Assembly: GCA_016839785.1 (NCBI GenBank)
Contig: JAEOTQ010000034.1
Span: 1,206 to 65,205, forward strand
DNA: 64,000 nt
Reading direction: 5' to 3'
DNA from: Candidatus Hodarchaeota archaeon
GTDB lineage: Archaea; Asgardarchaeota; Heimdallarchaeia; Hodarchaeales; Hodarchaeaceae
Shown here: positions 20,059 to 29,109 of the stretch, piece by piece
Numbering within the stretch: the first letter of the stretch is position 1
Layout of the letters: each line of letters starts with the position of its first letter
The notes under the pieces: generated by a model
Database searches by the model: none
What the model was told of the DNA's origin: nothing
The model's input: only the letters and a program-made list of their open reading frames with translations
Made by a program: the position numbers and the translations under genes

Positions 20059-20763
20059 TCACTGCAATTGTTGAATCAAACTCGCAATGCGGGAGTTAAT
20101 ATCTTTAAGCATGTTTGAACTCAAAAGATCTATATAAGAAATATGCTGCCTATCTTGATTCGAGTAGTACTTCCAATTGGCTGGATAGGGGTCACATATG
20201 AGTCCACTTTTTGCTAGTTTTTTCGTTAAATGACTAATGGCTTTTACAAGAGTTAGATCTTCTTTTATTGTATCACCTTGGACTTCCTCGACAATTAATA
20301 TGGGATATTCCTTGTCAAAAGCCTCAATTTTCGCAATTCCAATTACTTTCGGCGTTATAAAGCGATACTCTTTCAATTCTGGTTCTAAATTGATCTTTTT
20401 AATAGTAGTTAGGAAATCACTAATACAAAAATAATGGATAAGCAATTGAGTTAAATGACGAGAATAATAGGGCTTATACATCAATCTCCCTACTTGCTCA
20501 GAAGGAAAACTCCACCCAAACAGGACGCTGGATCCTCCTGCATAAAATTGAGTTCCGATTAGCTTTTTTCCGAGTTTTTCTTTGATTAATTCAATTTTCT
20601 TAGGCCCTAGAAATTGACCTCTCGAGAATTGGACAACACTCTCAACTAATTCTAGGTTTTTTTGGAGAGCATAATATGAATAATTTTTCTTAAATTCAGG
20701 AAATATACTAAATGTAGGGGGACTCATTATGCCCAAAGACCTATACCCAGTCTGCTGAATCAA
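20059..20763 (-). CDS. Hypothetical protein with faint protein-kinase-like (RIO/Kdo-type) C-lobe features
   Basis: ILIVEEVQGDTI (hinge-like), LAKSGLICDPYPANWKY (catalytic-loop-like, no HxD), ISYIDLLSS (DFG-like position). Overlaps the top6A 3' end by 23 nt, or is separated by 13 nt if Met13 is the start. Confidence 0.4.
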   Translation of the reverse strand: MIQQTGYRSLGIMSPPTFSIFPEFKKNYSYYALQKNLELVESVVQFSRGQFLGPKKIELIKEKLGKKLIGTQFYAGGSSVLFGWSFPSEQVGRLMYKPYYSRHLTQLLIHYFCISDFLTTIKKINLEPELKEYRFITPKVIGIAKIEAFDKEYPILIVEEVQGDTIKEDLTLVKAISHLTKKLAKSGLICDPYPANWKYYSNQDRQHISYIDLLSSNMLKDINSRIASLIQQLQ

Positions 20764-22150
20764 TCTTTGTCGGAAGATACGTTCCAGTCATATATCGCCA
20801 ATTTTTACTAGCTAACGCTTGAATTTCGGCTTTTTGTTTAGTGTTTTTCATTATGAGAATCTGTTTTTCCCACTCAGGACGTGATTTGACGAAATCTTCT
20901 TTTAGCAAATCATCTGCACGTTTCATATCGTTATCTGTCATCTTGATTAATACTGATTTGGGAATTTGGTATTCCTCAATATCAGAGGGTAACAAACCTA
21001 ACCAACGAATATCAGGAACAGCCAACTCAACACTCTCGAAACTTAAGGCCTTGCTTCCTATTGAATATACTCTCAAAATATCTAATCCATACGGATCAGC
21101 ATCTAAGAATCCTAAAATTGGAATTTTTAAATCTTGATACATCTTTTTTATAAATAAACGTGTAGCCATATCAGGCTGTCCTGAAGCAGTAATTAGAATG
21201 CAGGGAATATAATTAAAGAACTTATCCTCTGCTAAGTCTTGGAATACAGCGTCTTTTTCTATTACAAGCATGAATTCTGCATCACTGTCGAAATTTTCTA
21301 CTTGATCAAGCATAGGCGTTATGGCATGACCACCCAATCCCTTTGTACAATCAATACGGTCTCCTCCCTCAGTGAAAGAAAGTCTTCCAATAACTTTGCC
21401 TTTCGCTGTAGCTATAACATTCAATGAATTCCTTGATACACGTAATAACGCCCCCAAATCCTCGATTAATCCATCAGAAACTCTTTGATTTCCAAAAAGA
21501 TTTACATCACGATAAAACAAATGTCTTTTAGTTGCATGCTTTTCAGTTGAAAGTATTTCAGTTACATATCTCATTAAACCAGTTAATTGGACAACACTTT
21601 GCACACTGCTCAAATGACGGAACTGCCTGTCAACAACATTGCTCCCTAAAAGAACCATTCTAGAATTATTATCATAACCAACATTTTCAGAGCTTCGGGA
21701 GGGTATCCGAAAAGCTGCGTTTCGTGGATCCTCTGCAATTTCATCTAGAAATTCTAATGCAACTCTATTTAATCGAGATCTTGTTTCCTCTGCAGATACA
21801 TTGTCTACTTTCAAGATAGACACGGGAAGATCAACATCTGAATCGCTAACATCTTCTCTTATTTTTTTTAGACCAGCCAAGTTAATATTCCTACGAATCT
21901 GGAGTACAACATCTCCTTGATCAGTCATTTCCCATAATTTTGATAAATTCTTTTTCGTCAAAGCTTCAAAGGATTTTGCTTTTTTCAAACCATAGAATAT
22001 CTTCATTTTTTCTGACTTGAGTCCAAGTGCAGTTTTTATTAGACCAATAACTCCTTGTATTGTATCTTTCTCTTCCATTTTCACTTTAATGACTTTATTC
22101 GTAAAAGAATAATCTTCCAGGACAATAGTATGTTGTTTCTTTTCAGACAT
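20741..22150 (-). CDS. top6A: DNA topoisomerase VI subunit A (Spo11 homologue) with a ~100-aa N-terminal extension
   Basis: Catalytic-Tyr region ATKRHLFYRD (Tyr213), Toprim VIEKDAVF and LDADPYGLDI. ATG lies 2 nt after the top6B stop, with GGGAGG upstream. Confidence 0.9.
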   Translation of the reverse strand: MSEKKQHTIVLEDYSFTNKVIKVKMEEKDTIQGVIGLIKTALGLKSEKMKIFYGLKKAKSFEALTKKNLSKLWEMTDQGDVVLQIRRNINLAGLKKIREDVSDSDVDLPVSILKVDNVSAEETRSRLNRVALEFLDEIAEDPRNAAFRIPSRSSENVGYDNNSRMVLLGSNVVDRQFRHLSSVQSVVQLTGLMRYVTEILSTEKHATKRHLFYRDVNLFGNQRVSDGLIEDLGALLRVSRNSLNVIATAKGKVIGRLSFTEGGDRIDCTKGLGGHAITPMLDQVENFDSDAEFMLVIEKDAVFQDLAEDKFFNYIPCILITASGQPDMATRLFIKKMYQDLKIPILGFLDADPYGLDILRVYSIGSKALSFESVELAVPDIRWLGLLPSDIEEYQIPKSVLIKMTDNDMKRADDLLKEDFVKSRPEWEKQILIMKNTKQKAEIQALASKNWRYMTGTYLPTKIDSADWV

Positions 22151-22152
22151 GA

Positions 22153-25100
22153 TTAAGTTCCTCCCATATAGGAATCCAACTGACCCAGGACATCCGTTTT
22201 TCTTCGTAATCTAATATTAGCCCGAATTTTTTTGACTTTTGCTGCAGAAAGACCGTGGGTTTTTCTTAATGATTCTTCAGGCCAATAAATGAAATCAATA
22301 ATTCTAGTAACCCCATTTTTGACTAATTCTTGGGCAGATGGTATAGGTAACTCAGCTAATTTTACAACAGGCATTTCTAAGTCAGATATACAAGCTTTTA
22401 GTAATTTTTTTGGTACTAGCTCATCAGGGATTAAATCTGCATACCTTTTACCATAAAAGTATAGATCTTCAATATTAGTTATACCAAATTCATGTAATGG
22501 CTCATGATATTGCTCTGAAACGCGTACAAAATTCTGGATGGGAGTTCCTAAATTTTTCTTACGTTTCAATTCAGAAAGATTGACCTTTCGGTATTTAGAA
22601 ATTTCATATCTTTTAACTTCAAGTATCTCTGCCAATTCATCTTTATTCCAGAATAAAAATTCAATAATTGATGTTAAACCCACATTAAACAAGAGGGGAA
22701 TCTTTTCGGGAAAAGTCTCCTTTACAAGAGGTAAAACAGCTACTGGCTTTTCAAGGACTCGCTTAACTCCATCTATCGCTGGTATTAGTGATTTCGGACA
22801 CCGATCGGAGTCTAATCTAAAATATAAATCGATTACATTATCAATACCAAGTTCTTGTATTTTTGTTAGCTGATTGGGAGTAAAAGCCCGTAACGAAGAG
22901 AGTTTTACTCTAAATTCTGATTCGGTTTTCTTATGGGTTAGGATATCAACAAGATTAACGGAGTTTCTAGCGAATTCGTAAGTTTCCTCGGATATGATAC
23001 CAGTAGGATCCTCTAATTGAGAGAATTCCGTTTGAATCAAATTATAAACAGAGGTAATCCCATTAAACGCGAGTGGTACGACATAGGCGGAGGGAACTAA
23101 AGAATAATAGGCAAGAGAAGAGTTTAACGCGTCACGTAGATTATTCAATCTAGATTTAAACTGATCAGAAGCGTTCACTGTTTCAATTTCAATAAACAGC
23201 AGATCTTCAAGTGTATTAACTTTAAAAGACGCTAATTCATCAAAATCAATGAATCCAGATTCAATAACACTAGACACTGTTATCTCTGTATCAACTGCCT
23301 TACCTGCTAATTTAAAGTTGAATCTTTGTTTAAATTTATTTATTTCATGATTATTCATTTTTAATATGGTTGATAATCCATCATTTGGAGCGGAAAACCA
23401 AGATCCAAGAGTAGTGATACCAGAGTTTGAAATCTTTCGTAAATCTGCTACTTGAAAATCCTCTGATAGTCTATTTATTGGACCATCAAGTATGTGTAGA
23501 AATTCAGCTATACCATCCAGCTTTACAACATCAGCACTGAAAAGAATTAAAGATTGTAAGGAAGTTATATCTTTGGCCGATAACTTCTCAATAGTTTGAG
23601 GAGGCAGGTATTCTGATAATTTTGTCAAATGGATTGCCTCTTCCTCTAGTTTTTTCATCAGAGAAGAAAAAGTGATCTCATTGGAAACAGATCTGATTTT
23701 AGGAAAGGACGCTGATACCAGGGTTGCCAAATCTCGATGGCTGAGCTTTATGAAATCTCCCACACGCAGTATCGAATTATCTCGCAATGGGAGGAACCAA
23801 TCTATTGGAAGGGAGGGAATAAAGCTAATCGGTATAGATAGTAGCTGACTGAGTTCATTGAAGTTTAAGGTTTTTAATTCTGAATAAAGTAATTCTGGTG
23901 ATTGTTCTAGGATATTTGTTAGTTTTTCAGGATCAGTAGAATATACATCTCGGATAGAGTCAATCTTCTTCTGCTTTAGTTTTTTAACGGCTTCCTTATC
24001 AGCACCTAGTATTAGATAAAGTGGAGTAGCTATTATCGTGAATAATTCAGTCCATAATTCGGTAGTTACACGAATTTTCTTTTCCTTTTGCTTTTTAAGA
24101 AATAGATTTTCATCAGTTGAGATTAATAGCTCATAGACAGTCTTTAGATTTTGTTCATTGATCTTTTTCAAATAATCGGGTGGAAAATTTATTCTTTCGA
24201 TTGAAAGATTCTTCAGTAGGCTAATTGCTTCATTAATGCGAATAGATTCTTGAATCTTCTTAATTCTATCGCCTTCGATGCCAGTTTTTTTGTTAAGTTC
24301 CTCCCATGGATCTATCATTAAATCAAATATCGTAAAAACATTTTTTTGATGAAAAGTCTTTATCTCAGACGTAGTAATTATAGTACTAGTCTCAATAGGC
24401 ATTTCCAGAATTAATCGTGCATCCAATATGGTCTGCCACTCTAAATCACTTTCTTCAATAGTTTTAGGAGTTGCGGTATAATAAAGATCGGCTAAACTTT
24501 CGATTCCATATCGGGAGAATTTCCTTACAGTGTTTTTATCGAATAATGAAATTTTGGTTAAGGGGATCATTTTTTCTTCCTTGATAGTCTTGATATTTGT
24601 AAAATTCAATTTTTGCTTCATCGTTTTTAGCAGTTCGGGTTCTATCTCAATTGTATTCGTAAGTTGTTCATCTGATGTAGTCAAAAAGTCATAAATTGAG
24701 ATTATATTTTCTTCGGCCAGAGCACGATTTTGTTTTCTAGTTAAACCCTCAATAATAGAGGCAGAAGTTTCTGTTGATTCTCTCAATCGCAAGAGATTCA
24801 CTTTTTGACGGAGGTTCTCAACGTTTTCTGGTGGAGTATCTAAAACATTTGCTAATTCGTTTGGGGAGGAAATTAAAAATCGCAAAATGGTGTCAAGCCT
24901 ATAATTTACGAGTTTCTCGATATATTTCGATGGGATGATCCCATTTAGGTAGGTTACAGGTAGATCAAGTGATTCAACACTTTTCTTTACATAGGCAAAA
25001 TCTAGGTCATCCTCTTCGTCTAACATCTCTTCATTGGCACTATAATACAAATCCTCGACGGTTTCAATACCATAATTTGTCAATGTGGAAATCGTCTTGC

Positions 25101-28100
25101 GATTATACCCAGCAACATGTTCCAAAGGCATTCCATGTTCTTTAATTGCGACAGCTTGTTTAAGTTCATCTATTCGTTTTAATGATATGTTAAGGATTGA
25201 TTTAAGTTCATTCTGAGGCCAGTAAATCAGTTTAATGATTTGGTCAATACCATTATTCGCTAAACTTTCCAATCCATCATGAGACACTCGAATCTGGGAC
25301 TTATCTGTACTCGCCTGTAATTGAATCATAGCAATTGGAGTCTCAAGAATCCTTTGATATCGTTCAATTTTTTTCCACTTAACGCCCATAACTCCAAATG
25401 TTTGCTTATCTGCACAAAAATATATACTTTCGACAGTGGAATACCCACGTGATTTTAACGTCTTCATTTCTCCTGCAGTTAATACTCCAAGATCGATCAA
25501 ATCCATTCCATCAGTAAATTTTGGAATATTCCTTGTTAATTCTAGTACATACTCTCTATCGCGTCCTAAAATACCTGCTATTTCGTCTGGTGACCATGTT
25601 AAAAAGTCGATGAATGATTTTATTCCACCACTTCTTAAACTATTTACCCACCTTGGTCTAATATGAGATAATCTCGTAATAGGAGTGTTAAATAGCTCTA
25701 TCAACTTGTTAGTTTCTTTTTGAGTAAGTTTTAGATTCTTAATTATCTCATTTTCATACGGGAGATTGTAATAAAGTTCTTGAACACTTATGTCAGAATT
25801 GAGAAGTTTAGTCCAAGAATTTTGTTCCAAGTTGTTTTTCAATACGGAAATTGGCCTTTTCTTTAAGGAAATCTGCTTCTGAATTCCCTCAAAGGTAATT
25901 TTACTCTTAATGTCTTCAATTATTTTATAGGAAATTCCTGATTTTCTATGTAAATCATAATCAGGCCAGATTAGAAAATTTATTACTTTAGATATTCCTA
26001 AATGATGAAGTAATGCGAAATATTTACTTGGGATTGGTAAATAACATATTGGTACATTTAACTGGTCCAATATTCCCACAAGCTTATCAGACAAGGATTT
26101 AGGCTTGATTTTCTCCTGTGAAATAACAGAAATTAACTCTTCAAGACATAAAATGTCTAATGATTCCAACTTTCCGACTGTTGCATTATCAATCAATGTA
26201 ATAGGGGTTCCATAAGTTCTCTTTATTGTTTCCAAAACCATTGAGTCCATTCCTTTTATTGCACGTAACTCTTCGGTTGGATGGCTAATGAAATCATAAA
26301 TAGTTGAAATCCCTTTGTTGAGGAGAGTTTTTTCTAATTCTAAATCAAGCCAATAAGCTTGTTTTATTGGGACAGGGTCGAACGTAGCATTAATTTCATC
26401 TAGAATTTCATCCTGTTTGATTAATATTAGGGCATCTATAAGTCCCCGGACAATAAGTAGATCCTTTTCAGTTGTTAAGAGAAAATCGATAAAACCGTGA
26501 ACCTCTAATCTTTCCAAATCGGATAACATTGAATTTGAAATTCCGGGTATTTTAAATAATGATGTGTTATCATTGTAAGACTGTAATGCTTCCTTTAAAT
26601 TGTGTTTGGATTTAAATATCAAATTATCGATCAATTCATTTAAATCAGCTAACTTCTCAGAAGGGGAATTGAGGAAATCTTTGATCTTCGATATTTTCCT
26701 TCCTCTTAACTTAGGCGTTACTCGGTAATCCATCCAGTCAAACGTTGATGCTCCAATGACTTTTTCTGGATCAATATACTCTCCTTTCACTCCTTCTCGA
26801 ATTTCTTCTTTTGCACTTTCAATTAAACGAATCGCCAATTTTGGCATAGAAGATATTTTCTCTGGGAAAGCAACAAAGAATTCCAAGATATTGGTTATTT
26901 TTGCACTTCTGAGGACTTTTTCAATGTCTCCAGTTAACCAGGGAAATAATTCTAAATTAAATGCGTCTTCAGAGCTAGAATTCAAAAAATCAGTAATTGT
27001 ATTCAGTTTTGTTTCGTAAATGAGTTTTTCTGGAAAATCATCTACCTCTCGGAGCTGGGAAGAAGGAGTAGAAAAAAAATCAAAGGCATTTACAATCCAT
27101 CTTTTATTTAATGACTTATGGATAGTATTACTACCTCTATATTTTGAAAAATCTCTCTCAATTTCTTTGGAAAAGAATTCGAAATCCCGAACTATTGGGG
27201 AACGATGAGTTTGTTCTTGTTTTGTAACAGTTTTTCTGATAATTGCATCTATCCTTTCGACAGTCATCCCTGTTATGCTGTTCAATTCAACAGCAGGAGT
27301 TCGTAAAAATTGGTATATTGTCTGGATGTTATTTTCAACAAGCTTCAAGTGGATATCCATTGGTAACCATTCGCCGATTGTGGAAATCTGTGGGCTAGGA
27401 GGATATGATCTTCTAACTAATCGTGGAATAGCGGAAGCCAGCGCTTTTTGTAATTTTGATATTTCCTCTCCTGAGGTCAATAGATAAGGTGAGTTTTCAG
27501 CGGTTAAAATGTGAGAAAGGTTTTGTATTACTCTTGGTGCTGCACTTTCAAACCTTGATTGACGTTGTCTCTCTCTTCTTTCACGTTCAGCTCTTCCTAG
27601 ATGTTGTCCAAGTCCTCGTGCTAATTTCTTCAATACACGATTAACTTGATTTCTTAATTCATCAACATCAGCAATGTACTCCTTACTGGTCTCGGGGAAC
27701 GGGATTTTTGAGGATACAACCGAAACAACAATTGCAATGGGTGCTTTATTGATATTAATCTTATAATTCTTCCAATTCATCTTTTGGACGCATTTTGAAA
27801 TCATATCGTTTCCTGCACCAAAGAGTAATGGGATTCGGTTGGCAAATCTATAAATTTTCGGATTAGCCCCTCTAGAACCGTCTTCTTTCGATAGGTTTGG
27901 ACCACCATATGCTAATGCGGCTTCAACTATAAAAGGATGTCCACTGTATGCTGAAATTTCACCAGATGTTGCTTTTACAAATTGAGGTGACAATTCCTTA
28001 CTAATACCTTTTTCAAGGAGTTCCCACCCAAGAGGTGATAATGAATCTCCACTAGGCCGTTTGAATGGAAAATATTTCTTTTCTTTTTTCTTGGTTTTAT

Positions 28101-29109
28101 CTCGTTCGGGTACAGTAAACCCTTCATGGACAATTCTCCGAATGGCAGTAGCACTAAGTTTCTTGGGGTCAGTTTGATGATCAATATTAACAAAATCAAG
28201 GAAGTCCCTCGCGGTTTTAGGACCAATACCTTGGAAATGTTCCTGGAGAAAAATCTCCATCGTATCACTGCTCGTAACACTCAGTTCCCTCTTAAATTGA
28301 GTAATATCTGTACCCCAAGGATGAACTTTGGCAATTCGAGGATATGATGGCATCTCCTCCACTACACGTTCTAGTTCAATAGGAGAATCAGAATCAGGAT
28401 ATTGGATGAATAAACTAGCATAAGGAGTGATCATTGCTAATTGGGAAAAATAATCATAAATATAGCGAGAGGCAAGGTTCCAAGCTCCAGTAAAGGTAAC
28501 AGAAACTTCAGTACCTGATTCAACAATTGCTTCCGCTGTATCCTGAGGAATTTCCCGCTGAGCGAGGATTATTGGTTCATTTTCCGCAAGATTGATCATC
28601 AATTCGTGATAGCTTGTAAAATCTTCATTTATGTACTTCGATTTAATTATTAGAGGTAAATCCACAGATGACATTGCATTTAAGAGGACCATTTTTGCCC
28701 CTAAACCAAATCTACCGCGGGATTGTCGAGCTCCATAGTTACTTCCAGTTAGAACACGGCCAAATAGAGGTGGTACAAATTCGGACTGAATTCCACTTCC
28801 ATTATCTTTTACCGTCAACCGTAAGAAATCAAGTTTCTCAGATGACTCGAACGAACTTATGTTTAGTAATTTTGCTATCTCTTCTTTTTGCAATTTCTTG
28901 ATGGTTACATGGAGCTCTGGTAAATGACCCATTCTTTCTGCTGCATCTAACCCATTTTCCACTAATTCACGAACACTAGTAAAAACAACCCTCATACTAT
29001 TATCGAAACCTGCTATAGCTTTATTATCTTGAAAAAAATCAGCTGCAGATCTTCTTACAACTTTTTCACGAGTAATGTTCTTTTTAGATGGTTTTGAAGC
29101 ATCAGTCAT
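22153..29109 (-). CDS. top6B: DNA topoisomerase VI subunit B, giant form (2,318 aa): canonical core plus ~1,740-aa HhH-repeat tail
   Basis: Core residues 1 to ~530: ELVENGLDAAE (N box), DNGSGI (G1), GRFGLGAKM (G2), H2TH region GIGPKTARDFL, transducer RFANRIPLLF..SKIPFPETSKEYIA. The rest is one uninterrupted 6,957-nt ORF in an AT-rich genome. Confidence 0.9.
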   Translation of the reverse strand: MTDASKPSKKNITREKVVRRSAADFFQDNKAIAGFDNSMRVVFTSVRELVENGLDAAERMGHLPELHVTIKKLQKEEIAKLLNISSFESSEKLDFLRLTVKDNGSGIQSEFVPPLFGRVLTGSNYGARQSRGRFGLGAKMVLLNAMSSVDLPLIIKSKYINEDFTSYHELMINLAENEPIILAQREIPQDTAEAIVESGTEVSVTFTGAWNLASRYIYDYFSQLAMITPYASLFIQYPDSDSPIELERVVEEMPSYPRIAKVHPWGTDITQFKRELSVTSSDTMEIFLQEHFQGIGPKTARDFLDFVNIDHQTDPKKLSATAIRRIVHEGFTVPERDKTKKKEKKYFPFKRPSGDSLSPLGWELLEKGISKELSPQFVKATSGEISAYSGHPFIVEAALAYGGPNLSKEDGSRGANPKIYRFANRIPLLFGAGNDMISKCVQKMNWKNYKININKAPIAIVVSVVSSKIPFPETSKEYIADVDELRNQVNRVLKKLARGLGQHLGRAERERRERQRQSRFESAAPRVIQNLSHILTAENSPYLLTSGEEISKLQKALASAIPRLVRRSYPPSPQISTIGEWLPMDIHLKLVENNIQTIYQFLRTPAVELNSITGMTVERIDAIIRKTVTKQEQTHRSPIVRDFEFFSKEIERDFSKYRGSNTIHKSLNKRWIVNAFDFFSTPSSQLREVDDFPEKLIYETKLNTITDFLNSSSEDAFNLELFPWLTGDIEKVLRSAKITNILEFFVAFPEKISSMPKLAIRLIESAKEEIREGVKGEYIDPEKVIGASTFDWMDYRVTPKLRGRKISKIKDFLNSPSEKLADLNELIDNLIFKSKHNLKEALQSYNDNTSLFKIPGISNSMLSDLERLEVHGFIDFLLTTEKDLLIVRGLIDALILIKQDEILDEINATFDPVPIKQAYWLDLELEKTLLNKGISTIYDFISHPTEELRAIKGMDSMVLETIKRTYGTPITLIDNATVGKLESLDILCLEELISVISQEKIKPKSLSDKLVGILDQLNVPICYLPIPSKYFALLHHLGISKVINFLIWPDYDLHRKSGISYKIIEDIKSKITFEGIQKQISLKKRPISVLKNNLEQNSWTKLLNSDISVQELYYNLPYENEIIKNLKLTQKETNKLIELFNTPITRLSHIRPRWVNSLRSGGIKSFIDFLTWSPDEIAGILGRDREYVLELTRNIPKFTDGMDLIDLGVLTAGEMKTLKSRGYSTVESIYFCADKQTFGVMGVKWKKIERYQRILETPIAMIQLQASTDKSQIRVSHDGLESLANNGIDQIIKLIYWPQNELKSILNISLKRIDELKQAVAIKEHGMPLEHVAGYNRKTISTLTNYGIETVEDLYYSANEEMLDEEDDLDFAYVKKSVESLDLPVTYLNGIIPSKYIEKLVNYRLDTILRFLISSPNELANVLDTPPENVENLRQKVNLLRLRESTETSASIIEGLTRKQNRALAEENIISIYDFLTTSDEQLTNTIEIEPELLKTMKQKLNFTNIKTIKEEKMIPLTKISLFDKNTVRKFSRYGIESLADLYYTATPKTIEESDLEWQTILDARLILEMPIETSTIITTSEIKTFHQKNVFTIFDLMIDPWEELNKKTGIEGDRIKKIQESIRINEAISLLKNLSIERINFPPDYLKKINEQNLKTVYELLISTDENLFLKKQKEKKIRVTTELWTELFTIIATPLYLILGADKEAVKKLKQKKIDSIRDVYSTDPEKLTNILEQSPELLYSELKTLNFNELSQLLSIPISFIPSLPIDWFLPLRDNSILRVGDFIKLSHRDLATLVSASFPKIRSVSNEITFSSLMKKLEEEAIHLTKLSEYLPPQTIEKLSAKDITSLQSLILFSADVVKLDGIAEFLHILDGPINRLSEDFQVADLRKISNSGITTLGSWFSAPNDGLSTILKMNNHEINKFKQRFNFKLAGKAVDTEITVSSVIESGFIDFDELASFKVNTLEDLLFIEIETVNASDQFKSRLNNLRDALNSSLAYYSLVPSAYVVPLAFNGITSVYNLIQTEFSQLEDPTGIISEETYEFARNSVNLVDILTHKKTESEFRVKLSSLRAFTPNQLTKIQELGIDNVIDLYFRLDSDRCPKSLIPAIDGVKRVLEKPVAVLPLVKETFPEKIPLLFNVGLTSIIEFLFWNKDELAEILEVKRYEISKYRKVNLSELKRKKNLGTPIQNFVRVSEQYHEPLHEFGITNIEDLYFYGKRYADLIPDELVPKKLLKACISDLEMPVVKLAELPIPSAQELVKNGVTRIIDFIYWPEESLRKTHGLSAAKVKKIRANIRLRRKTDVLGQLDSYMGGT
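22156..27387 (-). repeat. Protein-level tandem array (~27 units of ~60-70 aa) of HhH / RNAP alpha-CTD-like modules inside top6B
   Basis: Recurrent pattern P(I/V)xxL..(7-12)..LxxxG(I/V)x(T/S)(I/V)xDF(L/I)xxxxxEL..I.G....... Examples: LLNKGISTIYDFISHPTEELRAIKGM; LRSGGIKSFIDFLTWSPDEIAGILG; LVKNGVTRIIDFIYWPEESLRKTHGLSAAKVKKIRANI (22213-22326). It alternates with a GIxxVxDLYY flavour (GIETVEDLYYSA, GIESLADLYYTA, GITNIEDLYFYG). Confidence 0.75.

Follow-up and report, generated by a model that had tools for sequence, protein, structure and literature searches.

The A subunit of topoisomerase VI (Topo VI) encoded in a 64,000-nucleotide stretch of DNA from Candidatus Hodarchaeota archaeon (contig JAEOTQ010000034.1, positions 1,206 to 65,205; the whole stretch is referred to below as the window) begins with a diverged member of the ubiquitin-family β-grasp domains, placed ahead of the canonical Top6A core. 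Taken as a whole, the explanation that we favor, and regard as probable, is that this ubiquitin-like (Ubl) domain is a translated and integral part of the enzyme, was gained once, has been inherited together with a giant Top6B subunit, and may serve in docking. Enzymes of the Topo VI/Spo11 family decatenate archaeal chromosomes, function in plant endoreduplication, and start meiotic recombination, and the Heimdallarchaeia, to which this organism belongs, are usually placed nearest to the eukaryotes among the archaea.

A preliminary description of this DNA, made from its letters, had put the catalytic tyrosine at residue 213 and counted about 100 extra residues at the N-terminus of Top6A, and both statements hold. 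Among solved structures, S. shibatae Top6A (2zbk_A, 1.2e-57) is the nearest, and its chain residue 8 pairs with residue 114 of the window protein; the stretch tirdlyyr of 2zbk_A, ending at its residue 107, pairs with TKRHLFYR of the window protein, and positions 7-9 of the NCBIfam Top6A models match window residues 114-121. This leaves approximately 106-110 residues N-terminal to the canonical Top6A start, with coordinates 21850-22150 encoding residues 1-100. Within the motif TKRHLFYRD, T207, K208, R209, and Y213 are invariant in 56 aligned homologues, as are the Toprim acidic residues E298, D350, and D352; at the start of the core, P109 is invariant in the family alignment, and positions 108, 110, and 112 are hydrophobic in at least 96% of sequences. 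The protein is predicted to be a true Topo VI A subunit, having a 5Y-CAP domain with its tyrosine, the Toprim acidic residues, and, alongside, a B partner with GHKL and transducer domains.

The extension is predicted to fold as ββαββαβ, which is the β-grasp topology. The AlphaFold2 (AF2) model of residues 1-112, built on an alignment of 49 homologous N-terminal segments (alignment A2), has a mean predicted local distance difference test (pLDDT) score of 82.9 and a predicted TM-score (pTM) of 0.67, with pLDDT block values of 87-91 over residues 11-90. Its elements are β1 (6-13), β2 (20-26), α1 (31-42), β3 (49-55), β4 (62-63), α2 (69-78), and β5 (81-87), followed by a helix at 92-102. AF2 run on the single sequence of the full protein gave a pLDDT of 32.6 and no confident model. 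The best Foldseek matches to the alignment-based model in the Protein Data Bank (PDB) all have the ubiquitin superfold (PB1 domains, SUMO-3, the TBCE Ubl, and ubiquitin variants), and many ubiquitin chains were matched; the probability was 1.00, seven matches had E<=1e-3, and target-normalised TM-scores ranged from 0.54 to 0.80 for single-domain targets. The structure prediction and search that the preliminary description had proposed as a check thus returned a β-grasp fold with ubiquitin-superfold structures on top.

Kinship with ubiquitin at the sequence level is carried by the family. Twelve of the 49 N-terminal segments match Pfam PF00240 (best, 2e-7), and others match Rad60-SLD (PF11976), Ubiquitin_2, UN_NPL4, FERM_f0, or RA_2; two full-length relatives (P0068 and P0070) carry precomputed PF00240 and PF11976 annotation. 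As a profile, A2 matches mono-ubiquitin in the PDB at 7e-7 to 2e-5 and aligns with human ubiquitin in hhalign at a probability of 95% (E 4e-8). This alignment pairs window K19-K56 with ubiquitin K11-K48 and D29-T30-I31 with D21-T22-I23, the same register as an earlier alignment made by eye, including its DTI helix start. Over the Ubl columns, hhalign joins the Hodarchaeales clade of the window to the rest of the family (95.8%, 8e-9), and the rest of the family to ubiquitin (95.8%, 7e-9). Residues 1-88 of the window protein score 19.6 bits against the profile of the non-Hodarchaeales members, the best of 2,000 shuffled sequences reaching 10.9. The shuffle test, the profile matches, and the predicted structure make a chance resemblance very improbable, and the window extension belongs genuinely, though in diverged form, to the ubiquitin-family β-grasp domains. 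The fusion of a Ubl fold to Top6A, first suspected from the letters, is thereby supported by AF2, Foldseek, and the family profiles; of the profile check suggested with it, the part that concerns the family came out positive and the part that concerns the window segment alone came out negative. The window copy can be recognized as ubiquitin-like only by way of its relatives and its predicted structure, and it would belong to PF00240 by transitive homology alone.

The extension is part of the translated protein. The top6A ATG, at 22150, follows a GGAGG-type Shine-Dalgarno site (Table 1), and the TAA of top6B ends 2 nt before it. The equivalent start position (ATG, GTG, or TTG) is kept in 49 related loci, whose Top6A open reading frames (ORFs) encode 463-495 amino acids (aa; one of them, read as 434 aa, is mis-started), and both length and start are conserved across more than 100 homologues. 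Compared with two close orthologues (L010 and L012), the Ubl codons have a ratio of non-synonymous to synonymous substitution (dN/dS) of 0.10-0.15, from 16-18 non-synonymous and 22-26 synonymous changes, and the Top6A core has a dN/dS of 0.02; purifying selection acts on the faster-evolving Ubl domain. The preliminary description had allowed for a true start codon downstream of the extension, and such a start is rejected because of the Shine-Dalgarno site, the 2-nt coupling to top6B, the conserved start position, and the purifying selection. The predicted N-terminal peptide of the window Top6A is MSEKKQHTIVLEDY.... Two 151-nt records of sediment metatranscriptome match window positions 21767-22044 without mismatch, and the runs concerned (X7 and X19) also have 151-nt records that are identical or nearly so to the 3' part of top6B (22425-22900). 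These records hint at expression of the operon in situ, with DNA carry-over possible and the mRNA polycistronic.

The domain does not end as a ubiquitin modifier does. Gly-Gly after β5 is absent in 48 of the 49 members, where the sequence RRxVxL and a conserved helix stand instead. Because of this absence, the Ubl is an integral domain, neither a conjugatable modifier nor a cleavable ubiquitin fusion; a cleavable fusion precursor is ruled out by the missing Gly-Gly, and the domain lies within an enzyme of 469 aa, in its N-terminal part. The amphipathic helix that links it to the core is conserved in its hydrophobic positions (89, 91, 94, 97, and 101, in 86-100% of sequences), and a similar KVRELRE helix is found at the N-terminus of Asgard Top6As that have no Ubl. 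Brinkmeier et al. 2022 (PMC9665070) reported that Asgard and eukaryotic TopoVIA have an extra N-terminal helix, and the linker helix at residues 89-102 is probably this Asgard- and eukaryote-specific element: the position is the same, with the Ubl sitting N-terminal to it.

The conserved positions of the Ubl family are those of the β-grasp core. In β3, positions 51-53 are each hydrophobic in at least 90% of members, and position 52, which aligns with Ile44 of ubiquitin, is hydrophobic in all of them and F in 73% (F52 in the window). Since position 52 is flanked by hydrophobic 51 and 53, one face of the strand must be exposed or packed on a partner. As for the rest of the ubiquitin patch, F16 is the Leu8 equivalent, hydrophobic in about half of the family and mostly where aligned, and most members have a polar or acidic residue in the place of Val70. 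The Ubl of the window is Lys-rich (net charge +6, isoelectric point [pI] 9.7); across the family the median pI is 9.5, and the net charge ranges from -8 to +13, about a quarter of the members being acidic. In a subgroup of Ubl-Top6As (P0047, P0049, and P0050; 495-496 aa), the β1-β2 hairpin of the domain is lengthened by some 17 inserted residues, …TRRRRKTQELGKGE…, that are strongly basic.

The partner subunit is encoded directly upstream. The window Top6B has HATPase_c and Topo-VIb_trans (8e-51) and a tail matching models of the helix-hairpin-helix (HhH) type (RAD51D_N, HHH_5, and RNAP α-CTD). At 49 of 49 Ubl-Top6A loci, a very large ORF lies directly upstream on the same strand, separated from top6A by -4 to 181 nt, and every such ORF with a readable N-terminus is a giant Top6B (approximately 2,280-4,180 aa) with an HhH tail. 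Complete examples from Hodarchaeales, Borrarchaeum, and Sifarchaeum span 2,282-2,338 aa; one from a Kariarchaeaceae-like genome (L006) has 3,468 aa, and that of Ca. Heimdallarchaeum aukensis (L098 812-13366), where the N-terminus is that of Top6B, has 4,184 aa and may be the largest topoisomerase subunit on record. The Ubl and the giant Top6B are always co-inherited, their genes forming a top6B-top6A pair with coupled translation, and Asgard lineages with a Top6B of 557-1,114 aa have no Ubl on Top6A. The giant Top6B forms share a stretch just after the transducer (…YPPSPxIS…), a similarity that does not in itself speak for contact between this stretch and the domain.

When 251 Asgard genomes were searched in six frames, 238 proved to have a Top6A. 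That orthologues in related genomes share the extension, a point on which the preliminary description had called for a check, proved correct: the homologues that bear it are all of the Heimdall group (under database names that include Hodarchaeales, Heimdallarchaeaceae, Kariarchaeaceae, and 'Heimdallarchaeota B3_Heim,' the last at 93% identity). Families f1-f5 of the window's class combine a Top6A of 462-489 aa (uncut genes) that has the Ubl with a giant Top6B. Family f6 of the same class (L004 1479-6097) has a Top6A of about 400 aa (403 aa in L004) without the Ubl and a Top6B of 1,114 aa with an HhH tail of about 600 aa; in this intermediate form the tail exists without the Ubl. Top6As of the Thor type and others are 395-427 aa long and have no Ubl. 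Borrarchaeum and Sifarchaeum have two operons, one canonical (Top6A 387 aa without Ubl, Top6B 557 aa) and one of the window's kind (Top6A 463 aa with Ubl, Top6B 2,289 aa). In Ca. Borrarchaeum weybense (L001 2862-17106) the two lie in tandem on one strand with a 968-aa HEAT-repeat protein between them, and the arrangement in Sifarchaeum is the same. Multiple Asgard Top6A/B pairs have been reported (PMC12680538), and the diversity covered there includes the Ubl-Top6A lineage.

Lokiarchaeial Top6As (family f10; L002 1436-3757 on the minus strand, L003 3857-6100 and L007 3622-5952 on the plus strand) are 747-776 aa long and are paired with Top6Bs of 650-680 aa. Their N-terminal extension, of about 400 aa, consists of Lys-rich low-complexity sequence and HhH domains (HHH_5, 1.2e-13). 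An accessory module thus stands at the same A/B junction, but it is HhH and Lys-rich rather than a Ubl, and the HhH domains are on A and not on a tail of B. Because these HhH modules occupy the same junction on Top6A, Asgard Topo VI appears to accrete accessory modules there.

In a maximum-likelihood tree of the Top6A core, from which the extension columns were excluded, all 18 Ubl-bearing cores fall on one side of a branch with an SH-like approximate likelihood ratio test (SH-aLRT) support of 99, so that one change is enough. Since the Ubl-bearing cores form one clade, a single gain suffices, placed at the base of a separate Topo VI lineage that takes in Hodarchaeales, Heimdallarchaeaceae, and Kariarchaeaceae and is present as an additional copy in Borrarchaeum and Sifarchaeum. 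A search for free-standing relatives of the domain of 60-196 aa returned 10 short proteins only and no donor Ubl; at least two of the 10 are 'partial' according to their source, and the others resemble truncated Top6A N-termini on short contigs.

What the domain does can be approached from its place in the complex. In solved Topo VI structures (2ZBK and 2Q2E) Top6A uses its N-terminal segment to bind Top6B at the C-terminal end of the transducer, and this adjacency would put the Ubl at the A/B junction, at the point where the HhH tail leaves Top6B. There its β3 face, with F52 in the place of Ile44, would anchor or organize the base of the giant tail, making the Ubl a protein-protein docking platform and not a transferable tag. 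In eukaryotic Spo11/TopoVIA, the equivalent region contacts accessory partners. We put forward only tentatively, at somewhat less than even confidence, that the Ubl is a docking or organizing platform within the holoenzyme that acts through its conserved hydrophobic β3 face.

Several observations weigh against the favored explanation in one or another of its parts. The window segment (residues 1-110) has no ubiquitin-family match in Pfam at E<=10; the three Pfam matches listed for it are weak and unrelated (Imm3, TPR1-like, and LRR_EndoS, E 0.05-0.08). The Hodarchaeales clade taken by itself aligns weakly with ubiquitin in hhalign over the Ubl columns (52%, E 1.4e-4). The dN of the Ubl is 4-5 times that of the core, which fits a loosely constrained accessory. 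As it goes back to one gain event, the pairing with the giant Top6B could be a matter of common descent alone and not of functional coupling, and the placing of the Top6A N-terminus next to the Top6B C-terminus comes from the published structures. In further searches with residues 1-110, NCBIfam gave nothing relevant, and the segment alone reaches PDB polyubiquitin solely through summing over repeats.

The alternative that fares best is that the Ubl mimics modification by ubiquitin or SUMO and recruits an external factor that binds the ubiquitin fold (a Cdc48/p97-type unfoldase, a proteasome receptor, an E2 or E3, or a protein of the SIM or UIM type) to Topo VI, for turnover, removal of trapped cleavage complexes, or localization, which would parallel the UBL-UBA shuttle factors, or Rad60 and Esc2 with their SUMO-like domains. 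Integral UBLs of eukaryotic enzymes often recruit external factors, and the organism appears, from its genes, to have a eukaryote-like ubiquitin system: its genome (G000) holds four PF00240 matches, one of them over the Pfam cut-off, and at least three genes for E2 (UQ_con) that exceed the cut-off, some of these genes lying within 1-2 kb of one another in clusters (on C163 and C116). The loci are C163:58812-61314, C116:39582-41411, C114:1155-1532, and C17:21-221, and the Top6A-Ubl profile weakly matches a Ubl at C163:60619-60798 (E 1.6e-4). The five relatives that match Rad60-SLD at 5e-8 and the hydrophobic residue always present at the Ile44-equivalent position also fit such a signal. However, no UBA domain was found in a search of the genome and no candidate receptor was identified, the Val70 equivalent is mostly polar or acidic, and the strict coupling to the giant Top6B is left unexplained; we consider this alternative unlikely, at about one chance in a few.

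Two other functions are far less probable. One is oligomerization of the PB1 kind, in which the domain would pair front to back, either with another copy of itself or with a different PB1-like protein, and so cluster Topo VI complexes. PB1 domains do head the Foldseek results (p67phox/p40phox, 1oey, with E 1.6e-4 and a target-normalised TM-score of 0.80; NBR1 and aPKC/Par6 are also among the matches), and the extension has, as PB1 does, a full second α-helix (69-78) where ubiquitin has just a 3-10 turn. Yet Pfam PB1 matches none of the 49 members, the region equivalent to the acidic OPCA motif (residues 55-68) is Lys-rich, there is no conserved lysine in β1, and the entire sequence-profile signal is that of the ubiquitin family. 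Membership in PB1 is ruled out by the Pfam result and the lack of OPCA and the β1 lysine; the resemblance is structural only, and PB1-like pairing is correspondingly improbable. The other, which we rate slightly lower still, is an accessory basic domain that contacts DNA, the Lys-rich Ubl holding DNA near the gate as HhH modules do. The high median pI of the family and the presence of DNA-binding HhH modules at the same junction in other Asgard lineages speak for it, but the charge varies across the family, which rules out conserved basic charge as a DNA-binding signature, and β-grasp Ubls are not typical DNA binders. Finally, that the extension is an artefact, untranslated or resembling ubiquitin by chance in Lys/Ile/Leu-rich low-GC sequence, would agree with the missing Pfam match of the window segment and the low pLDDT (33) of the single-sequence model, but is made very improbable by the signals of translation, selection, and conserved length described above and by the shuffle test, profile, and structure evidence.

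The features of the locus are collected in Table 1. Downstream of top6A, a 234-aa ORF (20059-20763, minus strand) overlaps its 3' end by 23 nt and has no Pfam match at E<=1e-3; it was not found downstream of the Ubl-top6A gene of Borrarchaeum (L001).

Table 1. Coordinates in the window of the Topo VI genes, the Ubl domain, and associated features
Feature	Coordinates	Strand	Evidence
top6A gene; product of 469 aa with Ubl domain, then linker helix, then canonical Top6A core	20741..22150	-	ORF list, Pfam, 2zbk_A match
Ubiquitin-like β-grasp domain, residues 6-87 (predicted)	21890..22135	-	AF2, Foldseek, family profile, shuffle test, dN/dS
Amphipathic helix linking Ubl and core, residues 89-102, conserved with the family motif RRxVxLxKxxxLR	21845..21886	-	Model helix 92-102, conservation
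Conserved L-P-[YV]-[GS]-[VI] strand, residues 108-112, start of canonical Top6A core	21815..21829	-	Homologue alignment
5Y-CAP/winged-helix domain, Pfam TP6A_N (PF04406), residues 186-245, 1.3e-17	21416..21595	-	Pfam
Catalytic tyrosine Y213 codon	21512..21514	-	Invariant in 56 homologues; aligned with the catalytic-Tyr position of 2zbk_A
Toprim domain, Pfam TOP6A-Spo11_Toprim (PF21180), residues 293-463, 3e-62	20762..21274	-	Pfam
Giant top6B, 2,318 aa (GHKL, transducer, and HhH repeat tail of ~1,800 aa)	22153..29109	-	Pfam, sequence reading
Shine-Dalgarno GGGAGG, 9 nt 5' of top6A ATG, within top6B 3' end	22160..22165	-	Read from sequence

The Ubl-Top6A is a real and conserved domain architecture of a well-known enzyme and has apparently gone undescribed. 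No description of a Ubl on Top6A was found in the literature searched in full text, a scope to which most subscription-journal papers did not belong, and there is no mention of it in surveys of Topo VI and Spo11 (PMC9665070 and PMC11302465), in a 2024 review of archaeal DNA topology (PMC11894792), or in a 2025 study of the Asgard replisome (PMC12680538); the word ubiquitin has no occurrence in the main text of PMC9665070 or PMC12680538. What was already known is that automated Pfam annotation puts PF00240 on a few relatives.

The sole Top6A of the Ubl-bearing Heimdall lineages has the Ubl and always comes with an outsized B subunit, so that the textbook A2B2 enzyme does not describe the archaeal Topo VI closest to eukaryotes. 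This variant is a concrete case of the ubiquitin fold built permanently into a protein of archaea whose genomes also carry genes for ubiquitin conjugation, and it marks the A/B junction as a site of repeated module addition in Asgard lineages, where Ubl domains, HhH arrays, and Lys-rich tails have been added. A wider claim, that the Ubl foreshadows in archaea the control by ubiquitin and SUMO to which type II topoisomerases and Spo11 complexes are subject in eukaryotes and that, with the HhH-tailed giant Top6B, it defines a new class of Topo VI holoenzyme, is speculative, and we would give it little weight.

Like the canonical Top6As of S. shibatae (2ZBK_A), M. jannaschii (1D3Y), and M. mazei (2Q2E_A), the window protein has a 5Y-CAP domain with the catalytic tyrosine, a Toprim domain, and a neighboring top6B; it also matches yeast Spo11 (8URQ) at 3e-11. 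Unlike them, it adds the Ubl domain and helix at its N-terminus, its scores against the NCBIfam equivalog models are at most 264 bits where the cut-offs are 424-675, and its partner subunit is 4-8 times the normal size. With the ubiquitin family (PF00240, PF11976, and Ubiquitin_2) the Ubl shares the β-grasp fold, the hydrophobic core, and profile similarity in the register of ubiquitin 8-65, but it has no C-terminal Gly-Gly, is not free-standing, has a longer second helix, and lacks a hydrophobic residue at the Val70 equivalent. Parallels are offered by the integral UBLs of eukaryotic proteins (SMCHD1, the C-terminal Ubl of TBCE [1WJN], the DUSP-Ubl of USP15 [3PPA and 4A3P], parkin, and Rad23/Dsk2), in which a non-conjugatable ubiquitin fold is likewise fused to an enzyme and acts as an interaction or stabilizing module; the Ubls of TBCE and USP15 are among the Foldseek matches. 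In SMCHD1 an N-terminal UBL stands beside a GHKL ATPase (PMC6620310) of the same superfamily as Top6B, whereas in the window the Ubl is carried by the DNA-cleaving A subunit of an archaeal type IIB topoisomerase.

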